Source of the DNA: a virus
IMG/VR virus record: IMGVR_UViG_3300008954_000029
Location: 1-64,000 of that record
Length of the DNA: 64,000 bases
Reading direction: 5' to 3' (one strand)
Shown here: positions 17,929 to 58,331 of the stretch, one piece after another
Layout: each line of letters starts with the position of its first letter
How positions within the stretch are numbered: position 1 is the stretch's first letter
Made by a program: the position numbers and the translations under genes
Notes under the pieces: generated by a model
What the model was told of the DNA's origin: nothing
What the model saw: the letters and a program-made list of their open reading frames with translations, nothing else
Databases searched by the model: none

Positions 17929-19527
17929 TTATTCCCCCGAACCATCCGCCACATGCCCCAGGCCAAAGGGCGGCGGGCGACGAGGTGGTCTGCTAACCAG
18001 TGGCGCGCCGGTGTGGTCTTTGCCTGCTTTGGCCAGCTCTATCCAATTCTTGAAGGTTTCTTTGTATTCGTCAAGCATAGCATTCATCTGTCGGTACTTT
18101 CCACTCATAACTTCACGGGCAGAAGCTTGACCTACCTCTATCCCCCTCTTCAATACTGGTGACATTCCGTAGTTGCGAAACTTATCATCTATTTTTTCTT
18201 TTACCTCGCGAAAGTAATCGTGCGCCGGGTGGCGATTGGCGTCGCGATGCGGAAGAAGATCCTTCCATTCAAAATAAGCCTCTCTCATTTCGTGCCCAAT
18301 GTGTGCAAGGTAGCGATGAACGAGGTATTCTATTATGAGTACCTCGCCCTCGCCCTTCAACAATTCAAGTGTTTTGGCGAAATCAGTTTCTTCATTTCCA
18401 GGATTAAACATCCAGTCATCACCTTTGAGGCCCACAAAAGTTATCAAACCATCAATAAAGTCCTGAGTCACTCGTAATTGTGGATGTGTAGGGTCTGGGC
18501 TGATGTCTGCGACCAACTCCCGAACCAACTCTCGCATTTCTCGCGCACCGCCGATCTTGGCGCGCCTCTTAATCTTTTCTGGTGTGTGGGTGTTGGGAAG
18601 GACCTCCACTAATTCTAAATTTCGCTCGGGATCAGCCATGGTAAAGAAGACGGCTTGCAGGGGCTCGTTAGGGTGAATAAAACCTACGCCGGCGTCGTCC
18701 ACAACACCGGCAATGCCCAGCTTACGCATTATGGCGTTCCAGCGCATCGGGTCTTCTTGAGCAGCATTGCGCGCCAGACCCCACAAATGGGCTGCCTTGC
18801 TCTCCTCGGGTGGGAAAGGCAGCGCGGTGCCCATGTGAAACTTGAGATACCGGTTGGTAGCATCTTCGGATCTCGTCACGGCAGTGTCGCCCGGGCCAGT
18901 CGAGGTGGAGGGGTCCCTTGCCAGGCGCAACCAGTCAAGCGGGGGATCATAAGGTTGGCCCGTCGATGGGGCCCATCCGCGGCGCAGCGCGCGCGCGCGG
19001 CGGGCATACCTTGTTTTCCTTTCGGAATCCATCATTTCGTCTGAAAGGAGTGCTTCGACGTACTCATCGTACTCATCCAGCGGAATGTCCTCGGCGGTAT
19101 AGATTACGGGCACACCTTCCGCTACCTTAAACAACATAATAAAAGGCTGGCCCTGGGCAAATGGGAGAGTGCCGTCAAGAAACTGATCAAAAATAGTTTG
19201 ATTGAGGGGATAAGAATAAATTCCGATCGGAGTACTGAATCGTGTGGTTGGGTTTACTCCAAACTTAAATTGGGGGCCTTGTTTGGATCGGTCCCACTCG
19301 CGCTCTGCTTCAATCTTCCCAAAGTGAATGAAGTGAGTGGGCTTTTCGCCAGTAGGAACAACGTACTGACGTAGAACGTCGTCCGTTCCTCCCATTTCGC
19401 CAGATTCTAGGCGGTAGGGGCCTTTCGCCCCTAACTTGCCCAACTCTGTCTTCCAACGGGTGGCCATTTCGTCCATTCGCGACTCTTTTACAAGCCTTCG
19501 CCACTTTGCTTCGTTATGTCTCTTCAT
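17929..19527 (-). CDS. large putative virion protein, possible divergent ART fold
   Basis: Leader-like KWRRLVKE; TPIGIYSYP and GIAGVVD..IHPNEP.QAVFF. Confidence 0.6.
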   Translation of the reverse strand: MKRHNEAKWRRLVKESRMDEMATRWKTELGKLGAKGPYRLESGEMGGTDDVLRQYVVPTGEKPTHFIHFGKIEAEREWDRSKQGPQFKFGVNPTTRFSTPIGIYSYPLNQTIFDQFLDGTLPFAQGQPFIMLFKVAEGVPVIYTAEDIPLDEYDEYVEALLSDEMMDSERKTRYARRARALRRGWAPSTGQPYDPPLDWLRLARDPSTSTGPGDTAVTRSEDATNRYLKFHMGTALPFPPEESKAAHLWGLARNAAQEDPMRWNAIMRKLGIAGVVDDAGVGFIHPNEPLQAVFFTMADPERNLELVEVLPNTHTPEKIKRRAKIGGAREMRELVRELVADISPDPTHPQLRVTQDFIDGLITFVGLKGDDWMFNPGNEETDFAKTLELLKGEGEVLIIEYLVHRYLAHIGHEMREAYFEWKDLLPHRDANRHPAHDYFREVKEKIDDKFRNYGMSPVLKRGIEVGQASAREVMSGKYRQMNAMLDEYKETFKNWIELAKAGKDHTGAPLVSRPPRRPPPFGLGHVADGSGE

Positions 19528-19681
19528 TCCTCTTATTTTCCTCAACCATCTTATCTATTAACTTCTGTTTAACTATTTTCTTGTGTTCCTCGTCCAAACC
19601 TTCTCGCATTTCTCTGAAATTTCGCCATGCCTCGTTAAACGTAAGACGCTCCCTGTCCATCTCTACACAAATTAAGCACAT
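19514..19681 (-). CDS. 55-aa phage protein (not in ORF track)
   Basis: MCLICVEMDRERLTFNEAWRNFREM...; downstream of ACTATTTA at 19715-19722. Confidence 0.6.
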   Translation of the reverse strand: MCLICVEMDRERLTFNEAWRNFREMREGLDEEHKKIVKQKLIDKMVEENKRNEET

Positions 19682-19721
19682 ACATCGTCATCCCCTTCAT
19701 TTTCATAGCATCAATAAATAG

Positions 19722-20579
19722 TTAGTAACAGGACAAATACCGTTCGCCGCGGTCGCATAGGATAGTCAGCACGATGTTTCCATTCAGACTTCTTTTAGCA
19801 GCCCACCGTTCAGATGCTAATACGTTTGCGCCTGAACTTATTCCAACGAGCAACCCATCTTCACGGGCTAGCCTGTTGGCTCTTTCTATTGCGTCTTTCG
19901 TACTCACCTTTATAACTTCGTTGACTATCTTGGGATCTAACAAAAAGTCTTTTCCATCGTTGATCCCTTGAATACCGTGAGAAAGATTATCTTCCTCGGG
20001 GCACACCTGAACTACACGTAGATCAGAAAACCTCCTGATCAATCTCTTATGAAGTCCCATTATAGTTCCACCGGTGCCTGATCCCAACACAATAGCGGAG
20101 GGGCGTCGGTACGCAGGAAGTTGGTCAAGGATTTCTCGTGCCGTGGTCTTGACGTGGCAGGCGATGTTGTCTGGATTAGAGAACTGTCTTGGATTATAAA
20201 ACCCCTTACCACCCTCGGCGCACATCTTTTCTTTCAACTCAATAGCGTCAAGAAAAGCGTTGTCGCCCACTTCAATTATCTTTGCGCCATAAGCCCGAAT
20301 CATCTGCTTGCGTTCTTCGCTCATATTCCTCGGCATTATGATAATGACTTCATACCCTCTGGACGCTCCAATCATCGCCATTGAGATCCCAGTGTTACCG
20401 CTAGTGGCTTCCACAATTGTGTCGCCCGGTTCAAGTTCTCCTCGGCCCTCGGCTTCCTTGATGATGTACAAAGCCATCCGGTCTTTAATTGAGCCAGAGG
20501 GATTATAAGTTTCTAATTTGGCGTACAACGAGGGTCCCAACTTAACCAGGGGTGTGTCTCCGACAATCCTTTCAATCAT
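19722..20579 (-). CDS. cysK: cysteine synthase (PLP-dependent)
   Basis: KLETYNPSGSIKDR, EATSGNTG, GSGTGGT, GISSGAN. Confidence 0.92.
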   Translation of the reverse strand: MIERIVGDTPLVKLGPSLYAKLETYNPSGSIKDRMALYIIKEAEGRGELEPGDTIVEATSGNTGISMAMIGASRGYEVIIIMPRNMSEERKQMIRAYGAKIIEVGDNAFLDAIELKEKMCAEGGKGFYNPRQFSNPDNIACHVKTTAREILDQLPAYRRPSAIVLGSGTGGTIMGLHKRLIRRFSDLRVVQVCPEEDNLSHGIQGINDGKDFLLDPKIVNEVIKVSTKDAIERANRLAREDGLLVGISSGANVLASERWAAKRSLNGNIVLTILCDRGERYLSCY

Positions 20580-21060
20580 CTTTCTTTCTCACCTTTGAGT
20601 GTCTATCTGCGACAGATGCTGCCGCAAAGGCTTCGGGCTTTATTTTACAGTCAAAACCATTCCCAGTGACGTACCCGACTATCATACTGGCTAGGTTACT
20701 GGTTGGTGTCTCCTTGTCTGTATTGCTCACGTCAACGTGTAGTTCTATCTTCAAACCTGGAAACAATGTGGCGATGTCCTGAGCAATACGAATAGTTCTA
20801 TCGGCTTCGGCCAAGATGCGAGTAGCGAGAACGGTCATCTCGCGAGAAGATAAAACCTCGCGAGTTATAAAGTATTTTCCACCTCGCTGATTGTAGGCTC
20901 CGTGAAGCACGATAGCCGAAGACATTATACAACCGCCATTATGGGGCTGTGTGTCTGATCCGATGTATACGGTACCATCAGCAAGATGATGCTGCTCAAT
21001 CGCGTCTACTATCTGGGCATAATCAACAACGCGACCGTCTCCGGCGAACCAACTATACAT
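20572..21060 (-). CDS. RNase H-like YkuK (DUF458) family protein
   Basis: YIGSDTQ, RILAEA, ELHVDV, IKPEAFAAASVAD. Confidence 0.8.
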   Translation of the reverse strand: MYSWFAGDGRVVDYAQIVDAIEQHHLADGTVYIGSDTQPHNGGCIMSSAIVLHGAYNQRGGKYFITREVLSSREMTVLATRILAEADRTIRIAQDIATLFPGLKIELHVDVSNTDKETPTSNLASMIVGYVTGNGFDCKIKPEAFAAASVADRHSKVRKKDD

Positions 21061-21081
21061 TGGCTAGCCACAAAGAGACGA

Positions 21082-22134
21082 TCACTTCACAAGCCACTCC
21101 CACCTTTCACTCCAATAGTTCAAAGGAGATTCTACCACATTCTCTTGAAGTTGTTCAACTTCTCCGATGGGAGGTGCGCTCTTTCCACGCTGCTTTGAGG
21201 GGTTGACCGTGAAGGGAACGCTCTTGCGTTTCTTGCCTTTGGTGGTAAGGCGGTTCTTTGAGTGTTTACGTTTGACTGCGCGCTGGAACTTGCCGCGGTC
21301 TTGCGGCGGCTCGGCCTGCTCCGTATACCGGTCAACATTGCCGTAAAACTGATTTCCCTCTGGTGGACGTTGTTTGTCCTGGACACTCATCACAGCATCA
21401 TAAGAATCAACCTTCAAGCGCATTAGGTCTTTTAGTGATTCATTGCGGCGCAACACTTTGAAGACAAGGTTTTCAACCGAAAACTCGCCCTCGGGAGAGT
21501 CCAGGCCTGCTCTGCGATAGTTCTTTATTCTGTCGCTCAAGTAGCGTGTTGTCGCTAGTGCCTCCTCGTAGTTGGCCTCGCTGTAAAGAAGCTTGGCGCG
21601 ATCAATCTGATCCATAAAGGAGGCTGCCTTGCCTTTGACGGAATGCCAATCTACCTGGGGCTCTTGGGGTTGTGGTTCTACGACCCAGTTATTATTTAAG
21701 ATAGAATAAACACCTGAGGAATGGTGCGTCTCGTCCTCGTTCTCAACATAAATCTCCACCTCAAAGCCGAAGATCTTTATGTCGTGTCGCTTGTTCCAAA
21801 GGGCCTTTTGGGCATTGAACATGTCCCGAACAATGTCCTCGTTCTCATCCACATCAGCGAAGTTGACGACGATGTGTAAATCCACGTCAGAGTAGTTGGA
21901 CCAATTATAGTTGGCCAAGGACCCAGTAAATCTTATGTCTTTAATCTGGACGTTAGGAAGGTCCAAATTCTCAAAAAACTGGGAGGCAATTTTTAGGAGC
22001 CGTTGAGAAATGACGGGATCAAGCTTTTTGACGGGGGACCAGAACTTTGTGTTCAGTTCGTCGTGGAATTTGAAGCTGGACACGTCAACGTTTTCGGCGT
22101 CCATATATTCTTCAAGGGAAACAATCTTCTTCAT
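21082..22134 (-). CDS. phage nucleotidyltransferase (Pol beta superfamily)
   Basis: TGSLANYNWSNYSDVDLH, VEIYV, GEFSVENLVFKVLRR. Confidence 0.8.
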   Translation of the reverse strand: MKKIVSLEEYMDAENVDVSSFKFHDELNTKFWSPVKKLDPVISQRLLKIASQFFENLDLPNVQIKDIRFTGSLANYNWSNYSDVDLHIVVNFADVDENEDIVRDMFNAQKALWNKRHDIKIFGFEVEIYVENEDETHHSSGVYSILNNNWVVEPQPQEPQVDWHSVKGKAASFMDQIDRAKLLYSEANYEEALATTRYLSDRIKNYRRAGLDSPEGEFSVENLVFKVLRRNESLKDLMRLKVDSYDAVMSVQDKQRPPEGNQFYGNVDRYTEQAEPPQDRGKFQRAVKRKHSKNRLTTKGKKRKSVPFTVNPSKQRGKSAPPIGEVEQLQENVVESPLNYWSERWEWLVK

Positions 22135-22503
22135 TTAGGCAACTCTCCGCACTCGGCCCACCACCTTCAACACCCGGATGCCCTTAATGTTGTTCACTGC
22201 GGGACGCAGGATCTTGCTGACGTAGGAGCGAGGAGAAATGCGTACGCTTTGCATACAACAAAACTTAACCCGGATAGTATCATAATAGTTGCTGGCGTCT
22301 TCGGTACCAGACCCCGGCAAGTATGAAACAACAGTCACCCCGGGGATGGAACGGATCTCTCCAATGGTTTCATACTTGTCGCCGCCGATGTCCTTGTTCT
22401 TCTTGATTCGGATGTGTGTCTCAAAGGATTGATACTCGTACCCTGATTTGGGGTCCTTCAACTCAAAAAGAAACTCTTTCCATTTTTGTGTGTAATCGCT
22501 CAT
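22135..22503 (-). CDS. putative virion protein with W-leader
   Basis: QKWKEFLFE leader; IRSIPGVTVV; ACTATTTA at 22532-22539. Confidence 0.65.
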   Translation of the reverse strand: MSDYTQKWKEFLFELKDPKSGYEYQSFETHIRIKKNKDIGGDKYETIGEIRSIPGVTVVSYLPGSGTEDASNYYDTIRVKFCCMQSVRISPRSYVSKILRPAVNNIKGIRVLKVVGRVRRVA

Positions 22504-22561
22504 ACGTATTCCTACATTATACCAGTAGATATAAATAGTTTTAAGCCAGCGAAAGTGCTTA

Positions 22562-23257
22562 TTACTTTATTGATTCAAAGTAGGTATTGATGTGCTCTCG
22601 CAGAAACTCTATGTGCACAGAGATGGACGAGTGAGGATACCGAGAATGAACGGCCGAAATCATTCCAACTATTTCGTGCCTCTCGTTGTACACCGGGCCT
22701 CCTGAGTTCCCTGCGTATGCGGGGATTGATGTCATAAGCACCATCTTTGGGTCTCCACTCAAATCAAGTTCAGTTCCAAGAAAGTCGTGACCAACAACCC
22801 ACCCGCTTGTCTTGGTGGGAAAGGTCCCCGATGGAGCACCTATGGTGTGCACACGATCGCCTGTACGGGGCGCATTGGGCGCCAGCGTGAGAACACTGAA
22901 CGCGTCGATGGCCATAAAAACACGGACTATACAAGCATCTCCGTCCTCCGCTGTATAGACGACTCTGCCACCAAACTCCTCTCTCACACCTTCGTGTGGA
23001 GGGATCGTGGCCACCTTCGCTGGGCGGCCGACTTTCAAACAAATGTGGTCCGCTGTCATCACGAAGACATCATCACCGGCAGACCCTATAACAAAGCCAG
23101 CGCCAGTAGCGACACCTTCATCGTGCTCTAAATAGACTTGAGCCACTCCACGGTATACAGGGTCCGCCGGGGTCGTTGGCGCACTATATACATAAGTTGT
23201 CTCCTGATGAGCACACGAAACTAAAGTAAAAGTTAATAAAAGCGTAAACCACTTCAC
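22562..23257 (-). CDS. trypsin-like serine protease, lipoprotein
   Basis: LVSC lipobox, TADH, D, GNSGGP. Confidence 0.85.
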   Translation of the reverse strand: MKWFTLLLTFTLVSCAHQETTYVYSAPTTPADPVYRGVAQVYLEHDEGVATGAGFVIGSAGDDVFVMTADHICLKVGRPAKVATIPPHEGVREEFGGRVVYTAEDGDACIVRVFMAIDAFSVLTLAPNAPRTGDRVHTIGAPSGTFPTKTSGWVVGHDFLGTELDLSGDPKMVLMTSIPAYAGNSGGPVYNERHEIVGMISAVHSRYPHSSISVHIEFLREHINTYFESIK

Positions 23258-23269
23258 ATTTTATTCCTC

Positions 23270-26207: not shown

Positions 26208-26209
26208 AG

Positions 26210-26885: not shown

Positions 26886-26886
26886 T

Positions 26887-27770: not shown

Positions 27771-27807
27771 AATAATAAATTACCACAAATTCGCCCAGTT
27801 GTTAAAT

Positions 27808-28419: not shown

Positions 28420-28436
28420 AGCAAAGAATTATTGCA

Positions 28437-30845
28437 TCACCCTCCTTCACTAAAGACTTCCCTCATCAGAGCCTCAGCCTTTTCCTTATAAGTATCGTGC
28501 TGTGCCTCATAAGAGGGATTTAATAGTTTGTGGATCTCCTGAATCTGTCGCTCTTGAACATCGGCTACGCCCAACTGGTATTGTGGATCGGACAATTCTG
28601 GATAGTCAATGTTGTTGAGAGCTTTTGTGATCGTAACTTGCAGAAGTTGCTGTATCTTGTTAAAGACCTCTTGTTGATCAAGATACTTGGCGAAGTTCAT
28701 AACGATTTGTGCGTCTTCCTCGGTGGCCTTGAAACCTTCTTGGTGCTCCATGTCCATAATCAGATCAATTGTTATGTACCATTTGGGCACTACATACTTC
28801 TTTCCGCCCTCTTCCTCAACGTGCGCACCTCGGAAGCCGGCTGAATCGGCGCGGGGAAGCACTAGCACACTCACATTATCGTCGCGGCCAAACCCCAATT
28901 CCTCTGCGGCCTTTTGCCAGGTCTCTTCTTCCCGTTTCTCAGCAGCCTCCTCATCACCGCCAAAGGGAAGTTCCATCTGCCTAGTGAGGTCGTCCAAGGT
29001 TTGGCTCAAAGTATCTTCAAGAACGCCAACAACACGATCACCGATCAACTTCTTTGTATGACCGTGGCGCTCCAAGAAGGTGAAGACGTCGCTCAGAACT
29101 GCTTGTGGATTGGGTGCGTCAAGTATCCACTGGGGGATTTCAATACGGGGACGCAGTTGGGCGGAAAAAGAGACTTCTTCGTTATCGTATTCAACTTCAA
29201 AGTTGTCTAACTCAAGATCTTCAAATACCTTTACATACTTCTGTACGTCCGGGGACCAGATCGCACCGTGCTCAACGAAAGCATTCCTCAATGCCTTTTC
29301 GTCTCGCATTATGTCTTCCAGCTTCCGATCATAGTCGGCCATCCTGTCCAGGAAGTTTTCGTAACCTTCTAGGCCTGAGGCCTCCCTGTAATCGTCGGGC
29401 CTAAACTCAATTCGCACGGCCTCGTCGTACCTATCCCACTCTGCCCCATCGACATAGATCCCTTCTTCATCGAGAATCTTCTCAATCGCCGTGACGAACT
29501 TTTCTTCGTCTAAAACACTCTCCTCTGCCACATCCGGTTCAAAGCTCCACCCACCTTCCCAGCTCGAATAGCCTTCGTCGAGGTGGTGCTGGACCCACAA
29601 ATGGGCGAAATCATACTCGCGCAGCTTTCTATTAAAGTCTTCCGGGTCGGGCCCGCCGGGGTTGTCCTGGTGGTGTTGTGCCGTTAAACCTATGATGTCG
29701 CCGGATTGTTCGTCCACCAGTTCTTCGACCAGAGACGCCAACTCAGTGAGGTCGTCCAAACTTATCTCTGTTAGATCAAGCCCATAACCTTCGGCCCACA
29801 ATCTCCAAAACTCGATGCCGCCTTGACCCTCACTCAGACCCTCTAATGCCTCTTGGGCGAAGTCGTATCCCGCGTCTTCGGCAAACTGCTCAGGATTTTT
29901 CTTTTTGAGCTTTTTATAAGAGTCTATACCATTCAGTCCCTTGTAAAAGACGTTAAGCCTGGCGGCATTATGGATGCCGCCGGAGCCAATCTCATCGTCA
30001 GCGCGATCCCAAACTGTGTCTGGCTCTCCATAACTGTTGGGGTCGTAGACCAGGGCCAACTTCCTATCATCAAAATCTTGCGGAATGTGTTTGAAGGTGA
30101 CGAAATAAAACGCGGCGCCCTTATCCCGATAGTCGTTAAAGTGATTATAAGCTTCGGTGTATGCGATACACCACTTCGTTCCTTGGCCGAAATAACAAGC
30201 AGCCTCTTCGCTCTCTGGGCGTAGAATTCCATAGTCATCGGTGTCCTCTATGTATTCTGTGGTGCTTCTGGCCTCTTCACGCATACGCTCCATCTGATCA
30301 CGCCTGGTCTCTTCCCGTTCGGCCTCGTATACTGCGGTCTGTATTTCATAGGTATCTTCAAATTCATCAATAGATTTCTTAATCAGGCCTCGTTCCGAGT
30401 ATTTGTGGAATTTCGGAAGGGCCCGGACAAGGCGATCGCCGTGTTCTCTTATGTAGCGCCCAAGAGAAGTAGCGTCCTCTGTATCAAGCAACTCGTTGCC
30501 GGCTTCAAGCGTTGCCTGGGCTTTGGCACTTAGGCGTGGAGAGAGATGTCTGAAAGTCTCTTTTGTCCAGTCTTTAAGATACTTCGCGAACCAAGGAAGG
30601 TATTTATTTTTACCACTAGGATCAGCCTCCGACGCCGCTTTAAGCGCCGATGTGACGGCGTCGGTCACAATTTCCAACGCCTCTGGCTTAATGTGAGGCA
30701 TAACGTCTCTGTCGATAATCTTCTTCCAGTTCGTAGCAGAAGCCACCGCATCAGTGTAGCGACTCTCAATTAATAATTGTTCGTCAATAGTGATAGGGTT
30801 GGCCGAAAAAGAACGCCAACTATCAAAGACACTTTTCATTCCCAT
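28437..30845 (-). CDS. large acidic putative virion protein
   Basis: FDSWRSF..LLIE leader, GTKWC motif, ACTATTTA at 30869-30876. Confidence 0.65.
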   Translation of the reverse strand: MGMKSVFDSWRSFSANPITIDEQLLIESRYTDAVASATNWKKIIDRDVMPHIKPEALEIVTDAVTSALKAASEADPSGKNKYLPWFAKYLKDWTKETFRHLSPRLSAKAQATLEAGNELLDTEDATSLGRYIREHGDRLVRALPKFHKYSERGLIKKSIDEFEDTYEIQTAVYEAEREETRRDQMERMREEARSTTEYIEDTDDYGILRPESEEAACYFGQGTKWCIAYTEAYNHFNDYRDKGAAFYFVTFKHIPQDFDDRKLALVYDPNSYGEPDTVWDRADDEIGSGGIHNAARLNVFYKGLNGIDSYKKLKKKNPEQFAEDAGYDFAQEALEGLSEGQGGIEFWRLWAEGYGLDLTEISLDDLTELASLVEELVDEQSGDIIGLTAQHHQDNPGGPDPEDFNRKLREYDFAHLWVQHHLDEGYSSWEGGWSFEPDVAEESVLDEEKFVTAIEKILDEEGIYVDGAEWDRYDEAVRIEFRPDDYREASGLEGYENFLDRMADYDRKLEDIMRDEKALRNAFVEHGAIWSPDVQKYVKVFEDLELDNFEVEYDNEEVSFSAQLRPRIEIPQWILDAPNPQAVLSDVFTFLERHGHTKKLIGDRVVGVLEDTLSQTLDDLTRQMELPFGGDEEAAEKREEETWQKAAEELGFGRDDNVSVLVLPRADSAGFRGAHVEEEGGKKYVVPKWYITIDLIMDMEHQEGFKATEEDAQIVMNFAKYLDQQEVFNKIQQLLQVTITKALNNIDYPELSDPQYQLGVADVQERQIQEIHKLLNPSYEAQHDTYKEKAEALMREVFSEGG

Positions 30846-30896
30846 TTTTATATTATACTCCCGTCCTATAAATAGTTTAAAACATTACTATAACAT

Positions 30897-30925
30897 AAAA
30901 AAAGAGCCCCCCGAATGGGGGGCTC
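30897..30925 (-). terminator. rho-independent terminator after hsp20
   Basis: GAGCCCCCC-ATTC-GGGGGGCTC followed by T7 on the minus strand. Confidence 0.9.
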
Positions 30926-30956
30926 AAAGAGGACTAATGTCTTGTTACTGTCGTTT

Positions 30957-31352
30957 TTAACTAACTGGAATGCTAGTAGTCGTGGTGTCAACCTCAGGTC
31001 GCGCAATCGTGACCATCAGAATGCCGTTCTCGTAAGTCGCCGTGATGTCATCGGGCGTCGCTCCCTCGGCAACACGCCAAGAGCGAGTGTAAGAACTCTT
31101 CGTGAAGTAAGTATCATCATCCTCAGCGGCCGCGTAGCCGATGGTGATGGTATTGTTGGACAGATCAACGTTGAAGCTGGACTGTGCTACCCCTGGTGCG
31201 GCAACACTAATCTCTGTACGATTGTCGAAATGCTCAACACGCACTTGACGATTGGTGAAGGTGGGTGTGCGTGTAATAGTGGTGGGACGGAAAAAATCTT
31301 CAAAGATTCCGAAGAGTGGGTCGGCATTGGCGTATCGAACTAGGTTATTCAT
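30957..31352 (-). CDS. small heat shock protein Hsp20
   Basis: APGV, YTRSW, ITATYENGILMVTI; SD GGAGG; TTGACA-N17-TATATT upstream. Confidence 0.9.
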   Translation of the reverse strand: MNNLVRYANADPLFGIFEDFFRPTTITRTPTFTNRQVRVEHFDNRTEISVAAPGVAQSSFNVDLSNNTITIGYAAAEDDDTYFTKSSYTRSWRVAEGATPDDITATYENGILMVTIARPEVDTTTTSIPVS

Positions 31353-32818: not shown

Positions 32819-32873
32819 GATTTTCTCCTAAATCTAGAATCAGTATACCAAGAAAATGTACACTAGTCAAGTA

Positions 32874-33167
32874 TTAATTTACAATTTGTTTCTGAAAGAC
32901 AGCGAATGCTAATGTGACGCAACCTACGATAATCATCCACATTATTTTAGTTGTGTTTGACCTGAACGATTCAAGTCCTTTGATGCGCGCATCCAACTCT
33001 CGGAGGCGAGCATAGAGTCCCACGTCAGGGTGGTAGACTGCCTCCTTGATTCTGGAAACATCCTCACCCAACGCAATTTGCTTCTCTTTGATGGTATCAA
33101 TACCATCAATAATGTGCTGAATTTGGCCCTTAATCTCAATTAGGGTAACACTTTGATGATCATCCAT
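32874..33167 (-). CDS. coiled-coil protein with C-terminal TM helix (holin/XhlA-like architecture)
   Basis: Heptad pattern then IMWMIIVGCVTLAF; ACTATTTA at 33176-33183. Confidence 0.55.
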   Translation of the reverse strand: MDDHQSVTLIEIKGQIQHIIDGIDTIKEKQIALGEDVSRIKEAVYHPDVGLYARLRELDARIKGLESFRSNTTKIMWMIIVGCVTLAFAVFQKQIVN

Positions 33168-33183
33168 AGCACTTTTAAATAGT

Positions 33184-34807: not shown

Positions 34808-36400
34808 TTATATTTCTTTGACGCCCTTTTCTGGGTCGGTAATCAAATCATTCAACTCTTCGGAGGCTCGCACCGCAGTCTGCCCATAAGCAAACCGATT
34901 GCCTCCTTGCGGGGTAAGGTAGTAGCCCGTGATCCCCTGGGTGAGCGTGTCTAGGGCTGCGAAAATCGAGACAACAGTATCTTTTAATGAATCGGTGTAT
35001 TCCTCAGCCAGCCTTAGGGCGTTCTCTCTATCAATCTGTAAATAACCGAGTCTCACCTTCTTATACACATCGGGCAGAGCTTTCTTGAGGACATCGCTTG
35101 AGTTTATCTCAAACTGCGACACTTTGGATTCTGTTAGCAAATCTTCTGAGGTCGGATTAGTGGACTCCATTCTGATGCCGCGGCGGGCGGCCAACTGCCG
35201 GCCCCACTCCCGAGGATCCTCCGCATACAACTCTCTGAAGTATTCGATGTCCTGTGTGGCTGTATCACTCACCTCTGCTTCGCTCTCACCCCTGAAATCT
35301 CCCAACTCATGGTCCGCTGGGAAATCCATAGTCTTGAAGAACTTTCTCCGCCTTGCGACGACGGCGCCCAACTCATCCAGAGACATTTCGTTCATCTGCT
35401 GGTCTGTCAGATCAAACTCCGCAGGGGCCTTGTACCCGAAATCCTGTGCTGCCTTCTTAATCATTCGCACACCCTTCTTGGCCTCAGCGGATAGCAGCTT
35501 CGCCAACATCTTTGGACCTATGCGCTGTTGAAAGGCTATGGCCGCTTTAACAAATTCTCGGGCGGCGGCCTGCTTTTTCATGATCTTTTCTACCTTGCTT
35601 CCAGCTATGTCTCGGCGGTGCGTCAAGCGAGGATCGGCGGCTTCCGACAATTGAATCTGAAAGTCCAACTCGTTGGCCAGCCAATAATAAATGTTTTCTG
35701 GGTCGATAATGAAAGAATAAAAAGAAACCCCTTTTGTATCGTCTTTTCCGAATTTATACACACAAAGATACTCGATGCCTTCCCGACCATCCGGACCAGA
35801 AAGGAACCCAATTAAGTTCTTGATACTGCCCTTTACAGGTGTTGTCGGTACAAGCAGTTTAAGTGAGATGGGCTTCCCCTCGGCATCCCTCAAATCGTCA
35901 ATCTGAAGCTCGCCGTCAGCCTTTTCTACCTGCTGTGTTCCCCTAAGCAGTCCCGCAAGAAACGCTTCAAACAAGAAGCCGGCGCCGGAGGGGGAGAAGT
36001 TATTAACAACTGTCGACAAGAGATCCAAAAACATCAAGTTAGAAAGGATCTCGTGTGTTTCGTACTTTTCCGGGCGAACCCTTTCAGTGAAAAGGTTGAG
36101 GTATCTCAGCTTATCCTCAATGGTCGACCCAGGGATGTTGTTCATGTAAGCTTCGAACTGTTGGCGGGCATCTGTGTCCTTTTGCCCCCAGGCTTCACTT
36201 ATCTCAAACTTTGGCAGCATGTCCAAGAACGACTTAGACATGTCCTCTATTTTGGTCGACATGGTTGACTGTGCGTGAGCGGCGTCCTCGCTCATGGCCT
36301 GCTCAACCATTTCTAGGAGCGTGGCCATGTTAAGGAGAGTCTTCTTTCTTGGCTTGAAATATTCTTCTACAAGAAGATCGAGGTCTTTGCTACTTTCCAT
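34808..36400 (-). CDS. putative virion protein with possible PD-(D/E)xK-like core
   Basis: GFLFEAFLAGL...IDD...ISLK; LxE sites; ACTATTTA at 36406-36413. Confidence 0.55.
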   Translation of the reverse strand: MESSKDLDLLVEEYFKPRKKTLLNMATLLEMVEQAMSEDAAHAQSTMSTKIEDMSKSFLDMLPKFEISEAWGQKDTDARQQFEAYMNNIPGSTIEDKLRYLNLFTERVRPEKYETHEILSNLMFLDLLSTVVNNFSPSGAGFLFEAFLAGLLRGTQQVEKADGELQIDDLRDAEGKPISLKLLVPTTPVKGSIKNLIGFLSGPDGREGIEYLCVYKFGKDDTKGVSFYSFIIDPENIYYWLANELDFQIQLSEAADPRLTHRRDIAGSKVEKIMKKQAAAREFVKAAIAFQQRIGPKMLAKLLSAEAKKGVRMIKKAAQDFGYKAPAEFDLTDQQMNEMSLDELGAVVARRRKFFKTMDFPADHELGDFRGESEAEVSDTATQDIEYFRELYAEDPREWGRQLAARRGIRMESTNPTSEDLLTESKVSQFEINSSDVLKKALPDVYKKVRLGYLQIDRENALRLAEEYTDSLKDTVVSIFAALDTLTQGITGYYLTPQGGNRFAYGQTAVRASEELNDLITDPEKGVKEI

Positions 36401-36414
36401 GCTACTAAATAGTT

Positions 36415-38697: not shown

Positions 38698-38751
38698 GTT
38701 CTAAAGAATAACACAGAGAGGGTGGGTCGTCAAGTAAAAAATGAAATTATC

Positions 38752-39288
38752 TTACTTTTTTGCTTCGCGGACAAGACGGGCAGCGACGCGACGAGTCAGT
38801 TCCTCGACGAGATCTGCGGGGATCTGGCGACCTTCCTCTAGGTCGTCGTCCTCTTGCTTGGCGGCATAATCGCCCTCTTCCAACTCGTCGGCCCCTTCGA
38901 GAGGCTCAACATCAGAGCCAAGCTCAGCCTCAAGTTCGGCGCCGGCGTCCATTGGAACTTCCTCGGCGGGGGGCTCGCCGCCCTCAACACTGACATCTAC
39001 GCCAGTCACATCACCGATAGCATCGGCAATGGCGCCGACGAGCGCCTCGACGGTCTCAGGATCTACATCAACAGCAGGACCCTCGACTTCCAGGGGAGCA
39101 ACGTCACCGGTGGCTTCGAGATCGTCGACTTCCGGGGCTTCATCAGCGAGAGCCGCTAGGGGGTCAACCTCTTCCTCTTCTTCATCCAGAGTATCAACAA
39201 AATTCTCCGTGAGGTTATCCAGGGTAGCGAGCTTCATAAAGCGTCGAACGGTGCCCTCGGAAAGTAGTGGTGATTTGCGGCTGCTCAT
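38752..39288 (-). CDS. highly acidic protein, putative prohead core/scaffold-type
   Basis: LLSE.TVRRFMKLA, many LxE sites, RRVAARLVRE; ACTACTTA variant at 39328-39335. Confidence 0.55.
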   Translation of the reverse strand: MSSRKSPLLSEGTVRRFMKLATLDNLTENFVDTLDEEEEEVDPLAALADEAPEVDDLEATGDVAPLEVEGPAVDVDPETVEALVGAIADAIGDVTGVDVSVEGGEPPAEEVPMDAGAELEAELGSDVEPLEGADELEEGDYAAKQEDDDLEEGRQIPADLVEELTRRVAARLVREAKK

Positions 39289-39340
39289 GTGTTATTTCTC
39301 CTTAAAACAATAGCAAGTTGTCATTTATAAGTAGTCTAAG

Positions 39341-47041: not shown

Positions 47042-47049
47042 TCCAATAC

Positions 47050-48373: not shown

Positions 48374-49166
48374 ACGGATTTATGATTATATCATCGTATT
48401 CATCAGGAATCAAGTCCTTTGTTTCAATAATCTCTCTTCGGTCGTATGCTAGTTTTATTGAAATACGGTAATGTTCGCCTGTTTCCTTATTTATGCCGTT
48501 CTTGCGACCCTGAATACCAGCCTCTTTCATCATGTCCAACACCTTGTACCGGACATAGATCTCTAACGCTTCGTTTTCTTTAATTCCCTCGGGACCAAAG
48601 TAGGAAATGGCCACTAAATTACGATCTTTTAGGTACTCTTCGTCATTAATAAAATGAACTTCTCTCACAAAGTCTTCATCTGAGGTAAGTTTCTTTATAT
48701 CGTGTGGAGCGCAAGACGGTATGTCATACCAGTCTAACACCTTGTAGCCCAAAGTATCTTTTTGATAGGAAGCCTGTATTCCTTCAACGTTTTGGTCATC
48801 AAAGACATACAACTTGTCGTATTGTACCCGGAACACGCGAGAGTTCTGCGTCACAACTTTAACCAAATTATCTTCTTCAATACGAACGTTGGAAACCTTA
48901 TCAGCGAACATACTGAGTCCTCGCAAGCTCAAGTCTGCTAGTAGTTTGTCTCGCAGGGCTGTGGAATTCTGGTGGCCTTCAACCAAATCAAACGGACGAG
49001 ACTTCTCCAAATGGTTTAAAATAAGGGGATACTTGTTCTCGTAACTGTACCGTACAGCGTCCGTATTGCCCCCTATAACAACGCCTTCAAACTTATAAAT
49101 GTGGTTATTCAATATACTTCTAGATGGCCTCTTTATTCGAACTAAAAACGACCTCCACCTCATCAT
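48366..49166 (-). CDS. hypothetical protein with Rossmann-like N-terminus (start uncertain)
   Basis: VVIGG motif. Confidence 0.5.
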   Translation of the reverse strand: MMRWRSFLVRIKRPSRSILNNHIYKFEGVVIGGNTDAVRYSYENKYPLILNHLEKSRPFDLVEGHQNSTALRDKLLADLSLRGLSMFADKVSNVRIEEDNLVKVVTQNSRVFRVQYDKLYVFDDQNVEGIQASYQKDTLGYKVLDWYDIPSCAPHDIKKLTSDEDFVREVHFINDEEYLKDRNLVAISYFGPEGIKENEALEIYVRYKVLDMMKEAGIQGRKNGINKETGEHYRISIKLAYDRREIIETKDLIPDEYDDIIINPYG

Positions 49167-50112
49167 TAATGTTTTGAGTAATAAATTCCTTCATTTCGTT
49201 TGAATTATCAAAATCAAGAATTTGCTGATCTAGGATTAAGCGGTATTCACCAACCTCTTCCAGGACATCAACCTTGTTGATGATCAGGTTTGTTACTCCA
49301 TTGATGTTAGAGGCCTTTTGGAGGAGATTTAAATCCATCCAATTACATTGCCTTGGACGACCGGTAGTAGCACCGTATTCTTCGCCTGCGTCACGAATAG
49401 CATTGAAAATAGCGTCCTTAGGTTGGAACTTCTTGGCCCCGACGTAGGTTTCGTACATCTTCGCTACGCCATAGACGTTTCTTAAAGAACGTGGGGGTAC
49501 TCCGTTAAGAAATGCTGAAGCAGTCGTGCAGTGAGATGAAGTAACAAAAGGATAATCACCCCAATCAACGTCCAGTCCAAATCCCTGGGCGCCCTCAAAA
49601 AGTATCCGCACGTCTTCGCCACTTTCATGAAGTTCTTCGTAAAGATCGACAATAAATTCTTGAAGTACTTCAACGTTTTCGGCTCTTACTCCCTTTCTTG
49701 CGTACTTATCGCGATAGGCGGGCCCATTTCCTCGTTTCGTTGTTCCGATAGCAGTGTCCCTTCCATCTTCACGGAGGTGGTCTCGTGTGATGACATGTGT
49801 ATTGCGTGCAATACGTACAAATCGTCTAGCGGGTATTCCTGCTTCTTCGAGTTCCTTGATTTCAGCGAAAAACTGATCAGGATAAACAACGCACCCAGGC
49901 CCAATAATAGACTTGACGCCGTGCAAAACTCCGCAAGGTATGTGGTGAGTGACGAGCTTTTGTCCATTATGGTAAATAGTGTGGCCAGCGTTTTGACCAC
50001 CATTGTACCTTATGACATGTGTGTAGTCCCCGTTCTTACACAAATGGTTTGTTACTTTACCCTTTCCACAGTCTCCATACTGTAAATCCACCACCACATC
50101 TGCGATCATCAT
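49120..50112 (-). CDS. purA: adenylosuccinate synthetase (short type)
   Basis: QYGDCGKG, GGQNAGHT, GTT.RG.GPAY, EGAQG, GATTGRPR. Confidence 0.93.
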   Translation of the reverse strand: MMIADVVVDLQYGDCGKGKVTNHLCKNGDYTHVIRYNGGQNAGHTIYHNGQKLVTHHIPCGVLHGVKSIIGPGCVVYPDQFFAEIKELEEAGIPARRFVRIARNTHVITRDHLREDGRDTAIGTTKRGNGPAYRDKYARKGVRAENVEVLQEFIVDLYEELHESGEDVRILFEGAQGFGLDVDWGDYPFVTSSHCTTASAFLNGVPPRSLRNVYGVAKMYETYVGAKKFQPKDAIFNAIRDAGEEYGATTGRPRQCNWMDLNLLQKASNINGVTNLIINKVDVLEEVGEYRLILDQQILDFDNSNEMKEFITQNINDEVEVVFSSNKEAI

Positions 50113-50122
50113 TTCTCCTTTG

Positions 50123-51589: not shown

Positions 51590-51671
51590 TAATGTGATTC
51601 AAAAACGATATGGTCTAATTGTAACGCCAAACGAGGTATTTGTTAATCACGCAATTGGCAATTATGCAATT

Positions 51672-52517
51672 TTATTCGTCCTCGCACTCATCGTCATCGG
51701 CGATATCGACGTCCTCGGGTACCTCTTCGCCACGAAGGCGCGCGCACTCTTCGAATGTCATGTTATTGTCGAAAATAAAGTGATAATCGTTGTCCCTGAG
51801 CAGGTTGTAAACCCTCTCGATGGGAATGAAGTAACCCATGTGCGTGATGGGGTCGCTGCTGAAGCCCATGGGTTGTACTGTGATCCTGGAAGGGATTCCA
51901 ATGTATTCGTATTTCTTCCTCTCGTCCGAGTAACGATAGAGGGCTCCTCCGGAGTTTCCAAAAATAGTCTGGGCAGTCGACATCCAATAGCGGTAATGGC
52001 TGATCTCATCATCCATGTAACAAATGTGACCGCTTGTGGCGATTGGGGCGTGGCCTAAGGACGCACCGACAGCATAGCAGGGATCAAAAATGTGAATGTT
52101 TTCGATGTCGCTCTCTGGGAACAGATTTGCGACATAAGGAGCACGGGTCTCCTTGTCGCGGACACGCAGGAGGGCCCAGTCCTGGCCGCCTTCCACCTCT
52201 GAATAGGCGACGATGTCCGCCTCAATAGCAAAACTACCAATACAGTGTGAATAATTGTTGTATTTAAAATATTCCACGTATACTGTATCAAGGATCTCGG
52301 TATCCATCTTCTTTTTCTTTACTGGATTCCATCTTTTCTCAACCTTAATACACTTTGCGACTACGTGGTGGTTGGTAATGACATAGGTGTGAAACTCGTC
52401 TCCGTGCTTCTCTGAATAGACAACGGTACCCGAACCACCAGAGCCCTTTGCTCTAACGCGGACGGTAGGGTAGAACATCTCTTCGTGCTTTTTAATAATT
52501 TTTGGTGATACAGGCAT
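51672..52517 (-). CDS. trypsin-like serine protease, no signal peptide
   Basis: TNHHV, DWALL, GNSGGAL; ACTATTTA at 52558-52565. Confidence 0.85.
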   Translation of the reverse strand: MPVSPKIIKKHEEMFYPTVRVRAKGSGGSGTVVYSEKHGDEFHTYVITNHHVVAKCIKVEKRWNPVKKKKMDTEILDTVYVEYFKYNNYSHCIGSFAIEADIVAYSEVEGGQDWALLRVRDKETRAPYVANLFPESDIENIHIFDPCYAVGASLGHAPIATSGHICYMDDEISHYRYWMSTAQTIFGNSGGALYRYSDERKKYEYIGIPSRITVQPMGFSSDPITHMGYFIPIERVYNLLRDNDYHFIFDNNMTFEECARLRGEEVPEDVDIADDDECEDE

Positions 52518-52566
52518 AATCGTCTCCTAAGTTAGTGCGCTGGGCGCAGCCTTACATTAAATAGTC

Positions 52567-56353: not shown

Positions 56354-56459
56354 CCCTCTTTGTCAATACTAGTATTGTACAGGTCTGGACTGTTTTAGTT
56401 TAGATCTTTACTTAGAATAAAGTATCACAAGTTTAAAGATGTGTCAAGGACAAAAAGGG

Positions 56460-56532
56460 TGGAGCCGGAGGGACTTGAACCCACGACATTCACGCTGCCA
56501 GCGTGACGCTCTCCCAACTGAGCTACGGCCCC
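56460..56532 (-). tRNA. tRNA-Ala(GGC)
   Basis: G3:U70 pair, anticodon arm TCACG-CTGGCAG-CGTGA; ACTATTTA just upstream (56543-56550). Confidence 0.9.
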
Positions 56533-56588
56533 TTTTCACCCTTAAATAGTCGGCCCCTTTTAAAGGTTCCTTAATTGTATGATTGCGG

Positions 56589-56676
56589 CAGAGAAGGAGG
56601 GATTCGAACCCTCGGTACGCTTTTGACGCACACACGATTTCCAGTCGTGCACCTTCGGCCTCTCGGTCACTTCTCT
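56589..56676 (-). tRNA. tRNA-Ser(GGA)
   Basis: Long variable arm, loop CTGGAAA, G73. Confidence 0.9.
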
Positions 56677-56704
56677 ATAAGCCAGAATTCATGTTTTTCA
56701 AAAG

Positions 56705-56778
56705 TACGCCCGGTAGGAATCGAACCTACAACCGATGGGTTAAAAGCCCAGTGCTCTGCCTGGTTGAGCTACGAGCGC
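56705..56778 (-). tRNA. tRNA-Lys(UUU)
   Basis: Loop CTTTTAA, T-arm GTAGG-TTCGATT-CCTAC. Confidence 0.9.
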
Positions 56779-56789
56779 TTACTCCCCAA

Positions 56790-57137
56790 CTATCTTGACG
56801 ACATCGCCGTCTTCGTCTTACCTTCCCAGATACTATTCTTGACCTTAATGGTCACATGCCATCGTTTATGAACTTCTGAAGCGATCCTCTCCTTCAGCGG
56901 CACGGCCATTGTGTGCGTCAGCCTGGTGTTGAATGGGGGCTCTTGTTGAATAATGACCAGCTTCACTTCTGCGTCGAGCTCAAGGAACTTGTATTTTACA
57001 CCCTCCTTTTCAAATAGTCTAGCACTTTCCTCTCCGCAAATAACCTCTGCTAGAGCTACCTTTTGTACAAAACTCTTGTGCTTCTCTCTTGCCTTAAGAT
57101 CCGCTCGTGTCGCCATAAAAAGTGTTTCCTTCTCCAT
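56790..57137 (-). CDS. hypothetical protein
   Basis: SD GAGG; lies between tRNA genes. Confidence 0.55.
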   Translation of the reverse strand: MEKETLFMATRADLKAREKHKSFVQKVALAEVICGEESARLFEKEGVKYKFLELDAEVKLVIIQQEPPFNTRLTHTMAVPLKERIASEVHKRWHVTIKVKNSIWEGKTKTAMSSR

Positions 57138-57190
57138 TAACTAGACCTCACCAAGTTCTTTGCGCACCAATTAAATTTTCAACTTCCAAG

Positions 57191-57263
57191 TTGGCCCACC
57201 GGGACTTGAACCCGGAACCGCCCGCTTATAAGACGGGTGCTCTAACCCTTGAGCTATGGGCCA
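57191..57263 (-). tRNA. tRNA-Ile(UAU)
   Basis: TGGCCCA/TGGGCCA acceptor, CCCGT-CTTATAA-GCGGG, A73. Confidence 0.88.
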
Positions 57264-57367
57264 GTATCGGAAAACGGGGCCGACAACTGTCTCGCTCCCG
57301 ACCCCGTTTATGTTACTAATATATCAAAGTACCTTCTCTAAGTCAAGAGAAAAGTGCACTTTACATA

Positions 57368-57493
57368 TTACTTTCCTTGACCTCGATACTTCTTCCTGTA
57401 GTGCTTGGACTGACCTTTGGGACCGGGGCGGCCCCACTTTGTGAACACACTGCAGCCCTGTCGGACCTTCTTCTTTTGTCCTCGATTCTTCAT
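57368..57493 (-). CDS. 41-aa basic peptide ending KKYRGQGK (not in ORF track)
   Basis: MKNRGQKKKVRQGCSVFTKWGRPGPKGQSKHYRKKYRGQGK*, SD AGGA. Confidence 0.65.
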   Translation of the reverse strand: MKNRGQKKKVRQGCSVFTKWGRPGPKGQSKHYRKKYRGQGK

Positions 57494-57505
57494 TGTTTTC
57501 CTTTT

Positions 57506-58201
57506 TTAGTCTGAATTCTTCTTTAGTTTTGTAAGAAAGGAGTTGAGTACTCCTCTGTGGTGCCAGTAATACTTCGGCGTCTTGTTTTCAACTTGTAACT
57601 TTTCTTCGCGAATGCGAATCTCCCTTACGAGAGCATCTTCTTCGTTGATGTCACCGTTGATAACTGGCTGGTTGGACTCTTCAACGATTTCGTAATCTTC
57701 GTCGAAGAAGGGGATGATGAACTTGCGGCCAGAGGAGTGCCTCTCCTGAGAGTAGAAGTCTTCACGGTCCTGGACGTCAGAACCAACAAGAGCAACGTCC
57801 CTTTCCTGGACCACCTTGTAACCTTCAATGTACTGAAAGCGCATTGATTCATCATCCCTCTTGATCCCCCAGATTACAGACTCTTGTCCGAAGTCCTTGC
57901 CAAGGTTCATAATCTCGGACTTTGTGATGTTGGGAACAAGAAAAGAGTTTTCAAGATTGCCGAACTTTCCCTTGATCCTGATGTAGCCCAGATTCCTCTC
58001 GCGCAGACGTTCTTGGAGAAGCTTGTTACGCTCTTGATTCTCTTGTGGATTCAGTTGGTTGCCGTCAGGGTTCTCTGCGGTGATGAATCCAACTGTATGG
58101 ACGTTAGGGACGGAGCCCATGAGCATGTTGGCGATGCGAGGAAACCCCGACTCTGTAATCAAGGTCTTTCGCCAACTTTCCATAATTTCTCTCATTATCA
58201 T
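57506..58201 (-). CDS. SAM lyase-like (T3 SAMase/DUF3293-like) protein with W-leader
   Basis: ITAEN..N..RN..L...G.F..ENSFLV...FGQESV; leader MREIMESWRKTLITE; ACTATTTA at 58209-58216. Confidence 0.65.
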   Translation of the reverse strand: MIMREIMESWRKTLITESGFPRIANMLMGSVPNVHTVGFITAENPDGNQLNPQENQERNKLLQERLRERNLGYIRIKGKFGNLENSFLVPNITKSEIMNLGKDFGQESVIWGIKRDDESMRFQYIEGYKVVQERDVALVGSDVQDREDFYSQERHSSGRKFIIPFFDEDYEIVEESNQPVINGDINEEDALVREIRIREEKLQVENKTPKYYWHHRGVLNSFLTKLKKNSD

Positions 58202-58331
58202 TGTCCTATAAATAGTTGCTTATTCTTCTTTGCTCTCGTCTTCTTCCTTGGGCAAATAGTTGAGGTTTGCGACCACAAATACTATAATACCACCGATGAT
58301 TGACAAAGTCAAGAACAGATTACGAATTGTC

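Follow-up and report, generated by a model that had tools for sequence, protein, structure and literature searches.

Two features of phage T4 provide the closest described parallels to the locus considered here. According to the account in PMC9026906, the internal proteins of T4 carry N-terminal propeptides of 10–19 residues that target them to the core and are removed by gp21, ten residues being sufficient, and foreign proteins can be loaded by means of the tag; in the T4 genome (NC_000866) the corresponding tags read MKTYQEFIAE (IPII and IPIII), MELITELFDE (Alt) and MLKEQLIAE (gp22). The T4 late promoter is described as an 8-bp box with its first base at -13 and no -35 element, and the late box of phage Aeh1 as having a/gC at -13/-12 (PMC2988020). 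The T4 consensus, TATAAATA at -13 to -6, is read by gp55 together with gp33 and the gp45 sliding clamp. The stretch analysed, hereafter the window, comprises the first 64 kb (64,000 nucleotides, nt) of an 84,662-bp virus contig (IMG/VR record IMGVR_UViG_3300008954_000029; CheckV completeness 47%), in which a number of genes begin with a short tryptophan-containing leader (the W-leader) and an 8-bp motif, ACTATTTA, recurs upstream of genes. A preliminary description had proposed that this peptide tag and this motif jointly define a regulon of head-internal proteins. The underlying observation is confirmed, and the regulon reading is partly supported: the W-leader is most likely a variant of the T4 capsid-targeting propeptide, and for the motif the preferred reading is a late promoter serving the clade in general, a counterpart of that of T4.

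The reference set for the leader was a seven-gene abutting array on the minus strand (12598..17074), each gene of which starts with the canonical form MKL[LI][LF]ENW[RK].[YF]L.E, of the MKLLLENWRKYLNE type, the last being MKKLIEEWKYRMSE. The four dispersed variants reported outside the array were all present, and all on the minus strand: MKRHNEAKWRRLVKE in 17929..19527, MSDYTQKWKEFLFE in 22135..22503, the degenerate MGMKSVFDSWRSF in 28437..30845 (MKSVFDSWRSF, from the second ATG), and MIMREIMESWRKTLITE, or MREIMESWRKTLITE from the second ATG, in 57506..58201. Throughout these genes the tryptophan is residue 8 or 9 from an in-frame ATG, and the leaders end in LNE, LTE, LFE, VKE, ITE or MSE. The leader DNA is near-identical among the array genes, and the dispersed variants retain the peptide pattern (W-[RK], aromatic, hydrophobic-x-Glu) despite quite different DNA. 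The bodies that follow the leader in these 11 genes are unrelated to one another, which attests to its portability, and comprise a kinase, a nucleotidase, weak ParB-like, kinase-like and 2H-like proteins, a DUF3293/S-adenosylmethionine (SAM)-lyase-like protein, a small basic protein and a large acidic protein. Within the array the best-supported bodies are a guanylate kinase (PF00625, E-value 4.7e-11; phrog_1815, 9.5e-26) and a 5'-3' deoxyribonucleotidase (phrog_2643, 2.6e-19), and weaker matches were recorded to a ParB-like protein (phrog_1033, 8.9e-5) and a 2H-phosphoesterase-like protein, with a protein-kinase-like match falling under the cut-off.

A degenerate DNA pattern located the leader M-K-L-L-L-E-N-W-R-K-Y-L-N-E in at least 160 open reading frames (ORFs) of at least 120 IMG/VR stretches, the leader-bearing contigs ranging from 33 to 52% GC and up to 204 kb in length, and often carrying several such ORFs in tandem. 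Among 141 distinct contexts, amino-acid entropy was at most 1.1 bits at positions 1–9, 11, 12 and 14 and rose to 3.5–4.0 bits from position 15, although the search pattern itself imposes conservation at the positions that it fixes, and only the free positions are informative. That the leader is an add-on follows from the nucleotidase family, which occurs both with and without it: 34 of 86 homologues bear the leader, their first catalytic Asp falling at a median of residue 27, and in 17 homologues this Asp comes no later than residue 12. Homologous bodies also exchange the W-leader for a second leader type (..LNRIIKEEL.., more generally ..L(K/R)QIIxEE..), which itself heads small genes situated by the prohead protease gene, in the scaffold position, in four relatives (G002 to G005) and in locus L059. 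The relative of the array head gene (16166..17074) in L049, for example, begins MKITKSKLNRIIKEEL, a leader of this second type. Other nucleotidase homologues have different short leaders, some of them close to the T4 tag. The short leaders of the homologues in phages Melnitz and immuto are likewise not W-leaders.

A prohead protease of the Peptidase_S77 (T4 gp21) type was detected in five of the five complete leader-bearing genomes tested. In G001, a complete 203-kb IMG/VR genome with which the contig is collinear (36 of 90 genes match, at a median identity of 41%), the head module (G001:121120-136003) has, in order, a W-leader acidic protein, a small membrane protein, the S77 protease (123379-123987), a 356-residue protein with ..WRTFLNE.. 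and a 139-residue protein with the second leader type, followed further along by a 392-residue acidic protein behind ACTATTTA, and then the capsid gene; no gp67 or gp68 homologue was recognised there, no search having been aimed at either. The contig ends in the gene that adjoins the major capsid gene in G001, and its own head module would therefore lie just beyond the contig.

Compared with the T4 propeptides of IPI, IPII, IPIII and Alt, the W-leader is likewise a short N-terminal module with an M-K start, aromatic or hydrophobic positions, a Glu at position 6 and a hydrophobic-x-Glu end, a likeness too short for a statistical test; it is an (L/I)-x-E extension absent from leaderless homologues; it is portable among unrelated proteins, both small basic proteins and enzymes; and it occurs in T4-type myoviruses that possess Peptidase_S77, some of the genes concerned lying among early genes behind late promoters. 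It differs from the T4 tag in having 14 residues with an invariant Trp8, against the 10 of MKTYQEFIAE, and is thus one helical turn longer; in heading far more proteins, mostly enzyme-like (11 in this half-genome and 9 in G001); and in being exchangeable with a second leader type. A further parallel is offered by the SPN3US/phiKZ group, in which many head-packaged proteins are trimmed by the prohead protease at a short Glu-ending motif (PMC5694885 and PMC10052503); that group belongs to another phage lineage, with another branch of the protease family, and is not known to share the leader sequence, no comparison with its proteins having been made. It is because the leader is a 14-residue, portable module with a hydrophobic-x-Glu end, in phages with a gp21-type protease, that it is regarded as a capsid-targeting propeptide, by which its bearers would be packaged, cleaved and injected.

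The window holds 12 copies of the motif ACTATTTA, whereas 100 dinucleotide-preserving shuffles gave a mean of 1.14 and a maximum of 4, and 11 of the 12 copies lie on the coding (minus) strand; a 13th copy (81668-81675) is located ahead of the tail sheath gene. The box is strict, since variants with one mismatch show no enrichment as a group (the most frequent occurs 9 times against 3.2 expected, and the others are at most 1.6-fold over expectation). The regulon as proposed did not stand in one respect, in that the motif also precedes genes devoid of a W-leader. Apart from the tail sheath gene, these include a trypsin-like peptidase gene (51672..52517; PF13365, 9.1e-13), 40 nt downstream of the minus-strand box at 52558..52565, and a small SH3-like gene. 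A further minus-strand copy (56543..56550) lies 10 nt before the 5' end of a transfer RNA gene, tRNA-Ala (56458..56532), and the signal must therefore work on transcription, not translation.

Comparable placements were found in the relatives. In G001, where copies of the motif favour the coding strand by 28:2, the genes behind it include those for a baseplate wedge protein (phrog_219) and a tail tube protein (phrog_4542), the immediate upstream neighbour of the Gp23-family capsid gene, and a 976-residue ORF that is the best G001 match to the contig's tail sheath (41% identity). In a pooled set consisting of the contig, G001 and 120 related loci, the latter chosen for a strict W-leader among the matches listed, an ORF of at least 60 codons starts within 80 nt downstream of 202 of 251 ACTATTTA sites, while the equivalent counts for four control 8-mers of the same composition were 29/121, 25/97, 14/91 and 15/81 (15–26%). 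A PHROG profile for the gp55-type late sigma factor (phrog_234) matched in all four of the complete relatives (E-values 3e-9 to 6e-6), whereas T4 gp55 used as a single-sequence query gave no match. The motif shares six of eight bases with the Aeh1 form of the late box and four of eight with TATAAATA, and so departs from the T4 consensus itself; in other respects, as a strict AT-rich box of 8 bp that has no -35 partner and stands ahead of virion genes, it resembles T4-type late promoters. The virion genes, the tRNA gene, the strictness of the box, its likeness to that of Aeh1 and the presence of a gp55-type sigma factor in relatives are the grounds on which ACTATTTA is read as a late promoter.

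In one respect the placement of the box departs from that in T4. The spacer between ACTATTTA and the start codon, which ranges overall from 3 to more than 55 nt in the pooled set, shows a sharp peak at 4–5 nt (29 sites, 22 at 5 nt and 7 at 4 nt), followed by a broad hump at 15–35 nt in which ordinary Shine-Dalgarno sequences are visible. Four T4 late boxes (those of genes 22, 24 [two] and alt) stand 19–29 nt from the ATG, and the clade has a large class at 4–8 nt instead. If the geometry of T4 applies (box at -13 to -6), a 5-nt spacer would place the start of transcription on the A of the ATG, and leaderless late messenger RNAs (mRNAs) are predicted from it. Five sites in the contig have the motif 5–8 nt from a start codon, and four of them are conserved in relatives. 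They are the array head (box 17081..17088, minus strand, 6 nt ahead of the ATG and too close for a Shine-Dalgarno sequence); the gene at 34808 (box 36406..36413, minus strand, exactly 5 nt ahead of ATG 36400, a leaderless configuration); the gene at 57506 (box 58209..58216, minus strand, 7 nt before ATG 58201 and 13 nt before ATG 58195); a 97-residue gene at 32874 (MDDHQSVTLIE.., box 33176..33183, minus strand, 8 nt before ATG 33167), which has no W-leader; and a 72-residue plus-strand gene, served by the sole plus-strand copy of the motif (11312..11319), 5 nt before ATG 11325.

The preliminary description had further stated that the motif stands just upstream of every tagged gene or operon head. 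This was borne out for three of the dispersed genes (spacers of 28, 23 and 7 nt) and for the array head (6 nt); for the gene at 17929..19527 the nearest copy is 187 nt upstream, with an ORF in between. The statement that two acidic proteins, encoded at 34808 and 38752, are likewise preceded by the motif or a variant of it proved correct, the former having the exact motif at 5 nt and the latter the one-mismatch variant ACTACTTA (39328..39335, minus strand) 39 nt ahead of ATG 39288; in G001 an exact copy of the motif precedes the orthologue of 38752..39288, again by 39 nt. When the association was assessed over the 91 minus-strand ORFs of at least 60 residues from 11.5 kb onward (11 leader genes and 80 others), the motif was found within 60 nt upstream of 4/11 leader genes and 4/80 others (one-sided Fisher P = 0.0066), and within 200 nt upstream of 5/11 and 6/80 respectively (P = 0.003). 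With the array collapsed to its head, the latter comparison became 5/5 leader units against 6/80 others (P = 1.4e-5), figures to be read with the caveat that the leader class was defined post hoc and that only five units are independent.

A closer tie between leader and motif concerns the spacer. Among sites in the pooled set where the motif abuts the ATG (at most 8 nt), 18/43 of the genes were W-tagged, as against 12/159 at longer spacers (P = 4e-7), and the second leader type followed the same trend (10/43 against 13/159; both types together, P = 8e-10); without the present contig the W-leader comparison was 16/37 against 11/155. Structural genes thus tend to have a late box followed by what appears to be a normal 5' leader, while tagged genes with a box of their own tend towards a putatively leaderless arrangement. 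What is new here comprises the sequence of the promoter, a placement of it that predicts leaderless transcripts, and the tie of that placement to leader-bearing genes.

These data can be brought together in a joint reading, considered somewhat probable, in which a T4-type late promoter and a variant of the capsid-targeting propeptide meet at these genes. A gp55-type late sigma factor would read ACTATTTA as a box at -13 to -6, with transcription starting at the sixth base after the box as in T4; at spacers of 4–8 nt, most often 5, the first base of the transcript would be the A of the AUG or one next to it, a layout that would be preferred for tagged genes clade-wide. The W-leader, as a short helix, would attach its bearer to the prohead's scaffolding core, after which a gp21-type prohead protease would cut the leader after its (L/I/V/M)-x-E end. 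The bodies (kinases, nucleotidase, nucleotidyltransferase-like, SAM-lyase-like, small basic and large acidic proteins) would then stay in the head and exit with the DNA, making head-internal proteins of the tagged products. The dispersed tagged genes sit among early replication genes and would need a late promoter of their own to be expressed at the time of prohead assembly, as with T4 alt; such a need would account for the co-occurrence of leader and motif in the contig. A more specific version, put forward tentatively, is that in what would be an abundant, so far uncultured marine clade of T4 type, ACTATTTA, exactly five bases, the AUG and the 14-residue head-loading leader form a plug-in cassette that yields leaderless late mRNAs for packed proteins. 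The same cassette could set timing, translation mode and destination together, so that nearly any enzyme might become injected cargo.

Several results weigh against this joint reading. The enrichment expected in the preliminary description, though significant in the contig, was not found over the 120 related loci, where 17/206 tagged and 92/1151 untagged genes have the motif within 60 nt (odds ratio 1.04, P = 0.89), 189 of the 206 tagged genes thus not being next to a motif; in G001 only one of nine W-leader genes has it within 200 nt upstream, the other eight being 787–9544 nt from the nearest copy. The spacer comparison given above depends on two leader regular expressions and an 8-nt cut-off that were chosen post hoc, and on loci selected for a strict W-leader from related phages that are not independent samples. 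In three relatives richer in AT (G003 to G005), raw copies of ACTATTTA are no more numerous than those of the reversed control word, and the case for the motif in these genomes rests on position, not abundance. Neither the protease gene nor the gp55 gene was found on the contig, which is 47% complete, and both are supplied from relatives that share 36 of its 90 genes at a median identity of 41%. The T4 gp22 scaffold profile (phrog_237) matched nothing in any relative or control, an uninformative outcome as to the docking partner, and blastn of the 45-nt leader DNA against a phage collection gave either no match or chance matches only, and hence no cultured carrier. Finally, the leucine and arginine codons of the leader are themselves conserved across genomes of 33–52% GC (CTC in 74/141, CTA in 85/141 and CTT in 86/141 for the three leucines; CGA in 68/141 for Arg9), which could reflect selection at the RNA level or frequent recombination of the leader, and not the peptide alone.

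This codon conservation speaks for an alternative in which ACTATTTA is again a late promoter and the W-leader is a recombination and translation-start cassette instead of a capsid address, the peptide being a by-product or a generic helix. The conserved 5' coding stretch would then allow the exchange of genes behind it and assist ribosomes in initiating on mRNAs whose Shine-Dalgarno sequence is poor or missing. The near-identical leader DNA of the array, several genes of which abut the preceding stop and have no Shine-Dalgarno sequence, and the enrichment of the leaderless layout for tagged genes would also fit such a cassette. It is nevertheless judged unlikely: the dispersed variants keep the peptide pattern with quite different DNA, the great majority of tagged genes lie away from the motif and as a group display G-rich, Shine-Dalgarno-like positions at -12 to -8, and a role in RNA leaves both the hydrophobic-x-Glu end and the exchange with the leader type of the scaffold position unexplained. 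A similar standing is accorded to the proposal that the co-occurrence is a by-product of gene mobility, tagged genes having arrived as moron-like cassettes that bring their own late promoter without any coupling of promoter and tag. The lack of enrichment within 60 nt both clade-wide and in G001, the location of tagged genes among early genes and the terminator-like hairpin that immediately precedes the box at 30869 all accord with that proposal, which is, however, compatible with the joint reading and not opposed to it, and which leaves unexplained the sharp 5-nt spacer class and its enrichment in tagged genes; as a replacement it seems doubtful.

Less probable again is the suggestion that ACTATTTA acts at the level of RNA, for instance in processing by an endonuclease or in the loading of ribosomes, sharing a form of post-transcriptional control with the leader. 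The proximity of the motif to start codons, together with its unremarkable abundance in the AT-rich relatives, would be expected of such a signal. Its occurrence ahead of the tRNA gene would not, nor would spacers that vary between 3 and over 55 nt, the long ones containing ordinary Shine-Dalgarno sequences; moreover, the length and strictness of the box, the lack of a -35 element as in T4-type late promoters, the likeness to Aeh1 and the gp55 homologues in relatives all point to transcription. The shared N-terminus might alternatively serve as the recognition site of a modifying enzyme or some other partner, or direct sorting elsewhere than to the head, an idea that appears very improbable: the radical-SAM version of it was rejected, the Radical_SAM domain being present in only one of four complete leader-bearing relatives and nowhere in the contig, as compared with the protease in five of five complete genomes, and no further gene that goes with the tag came to light, no systematic co-occurrence screen having been made. 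A reading of the leader as a signal peptide was also dropped, the leader being charged and amphipathic with no hydrophobic core.

If the joint reading of late promoter and capsid address is true, marine phages of a widespread group bring an extensive, variable set of ready-made enzymes into the host along with their DNA, which would bear on how host defences are overcome in the first seconds of infection. It would also imply that leader plus late box constitutes a simple sequence rule for predicting virion cargo from metagenomes, that a second natural capsid-loading tag is available for phage engineering, and that gp55-type late sigma factors have a new specificity, some late mRNAs being leaderless in a way for which T4 offers no described example. 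Literature searches, in a collection with few subscription journals, yielded no publication that deals with the W-leader, with a phage late promoter of the form ACTATTTA or with leaderless late transcripts of T4-like phages, and nothing relevant on virion mass spectrometry of phage HTVC008M among the papers listed; in the Melnitz paper the promoter search employed TATAAAT only.

Of the individual genes concerned, that at 17929..19527 (minus strand) encodes a 532-residue protein for which no Pfam or PHROG match was obtained even at E-values up to 5; Atlas gave ART-PolyVal with a feature score of 0.89, no more than a weak lead. From residue 18 runs a second W-type segment, MDEMATRWKTEL, whose Met is taken as the start in another database; either Met may be the true start, although the AAGAGGA ahead of ATG 19527 favours that ATG. 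The intervening 55-codon ORF (19514..19681, minus strand) contains ..NEAWRNFRE.. (TFNEAWRNFREMRE) and overlaps the ATG 19527 gene by 14 nt, and the minus-strand box at 19715..19722, which overlaps the TAA stop of the upstream gene, lies 33 nt before ATG 19681 and 187 nt before ATG 19527.

The gene at 22135..22503 (minus strand) encodes a 122-residue basic protein (isoelectric point, pI, 9.66) that resembles a T4 internal protein in size and charge. Its box (22532..22539, minus strand) is 28 nt ahead of ATG 22503, with the extended -10-like box TGGTATAAT in between, and it is followed directly by a nucleotidyltransferase-like gene (21082..22134, minus strand; phrog_36119, 1.7e-41) that is itself untagged, relatives of whose product bear W-type leaders. 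The product of 28437..30845 (minus strand) is an acidic protein of ~800 residues (pI 4.5) with a second conserved site, ..EQLLIE-S; its orthologues have the canonical W-leader followed by EQLLIEGR, that in L005 (686 residues) aligning from residue 1 with an E-value of 1e-34. Neither of these two proteins gave a Pfam match at E-values up to 5, and Atlas placed the larger in unnamed viral clusters, which serves as a lead only. The box of the latter gene (30869..30876, minus strand) is 23 nt ahead of ATG 30845, with GTATAAT downstream and, directly upstream within a 607-nt gap in minus-strand coding, the terminator-like hairpin and T-run ..CCCCCCATTCGGGGGGCTCTTTTTTT.. (30877-30960, minus strand). 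At both of these dispersed genes (22504-22539 and 30846-30876) a TATAAT box thus lies 10–11 nt downstream of ACTATTTA, and the genes at 22135 and 28437 may combine a host-type -10 with a late box in a form of dual timing.

The protein of ~230 residues encoded at 57506..58201 (minus strand) matched DUF3293 (PF11697, 1.8e-14) and, weakly and below the cut-off, S-AdoMet lyase (PF23780, 1e-4). Of the other two acidic proteins, that at 34808..36400 (minus strand; 530 residues, pI 4.98) starts MESSKDLDLLVEE, is untagged and gave no Pfam or PHROG match, and its homologues in two relatives (L066 and L054) begin with W-leaders; that at 38752..39288 (minus strand; 178 residues, pI 4.05, 30% Asp plus Glu) has the conserved N-terminus ..LLSEGTVRRFMKLA...

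Two copies of ACTATTTA fall within genes, at 44481 and 49973. The latter (49973-49980, minus strand), inside an adenylosuccinate-synthase-like gene (49120..50112), is followed exactly 5 nt on by ATG 49967, which opens a 93-codon out-of-frame ORF (49686-49980 including the box) with a hydrophobic stretch; this could be an embedded late leaderless gene or chance. In the late region, ACTAGTTA lies ahead of the contig's tail tube gene and ACTAATTA ahead of another gene. A reading of ACTATTTA as a MotA-box-like -35 element was dropped, since at the five sites with spacers of 5–8 nt a start 30 nt downstream would fall within the gene. Genes of replication type have a distinct class of promoter, with sigma-70-type boxes of the form TTGAC(A/T)-N17-TA(T/C)ACT at 32819-32873, 38698-38751 and 56354-56443 (minus strand), and also upstream of 63932..64330 and 66022..66780 of the contig.

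Among the relatives, a family of ~85–95-residue proteins with the pattern ..K(S/A)K(L/I)..LINEELT..DK.(D/E)IKKMI.. was found 4–5 nt behind ACTATTTA in L001, L017, L027, L118, G001:7776 and others, and its members may be small core or internal proteins of the head that bear the second leader type. Different genes in L011, L014, L058, L062 and L115 are preceded by one extended junction, GGAAGGACTATTTAAGAT(C/T)ATG; two of these genes have W-leaders, one the second leader type and one belongs to an unrelated family, and the junction looks like a shared promoter-start cassette.

Nearly all genes from 11.5 kb onward are carried on the minus strand of the contig, which includes seven tRNA genes, replication and nucleotide-metabolism genes and a chaperonin-like gene, with T4-type tail genes, among them those for a 988-residue tail sheath and a tail tube, past the end of the window. 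The DNA sequencing runs in which the contig is contained are labelled as marine and estuary metagenomes, and no RNA run was listed as containing it. No close relative was found among deposited phages by megablast with 23 kb of the window or tblastn with one array protein, nor any relative in a protein-based locus search of viral contigs with one array protein. Searches with the ribonucleotide reductase and the tail sheath gave no more than a loose placement among T4-like phages, the cultured phages that best matched the sheath being Microcystis phage Mel-JY01, Flavobacterium phage immuto and Pelagibacter phage HTVC008M. Two GC-rich palindromic 8-mers are strongly over-represented in the contig relative to base composition, GCCGCGGC with 16 copies and CGCCGGCG with 14 against 1.9 expected in each case, and the same two palindromes occur 38 times each in G001 against an expectation of 2.1.

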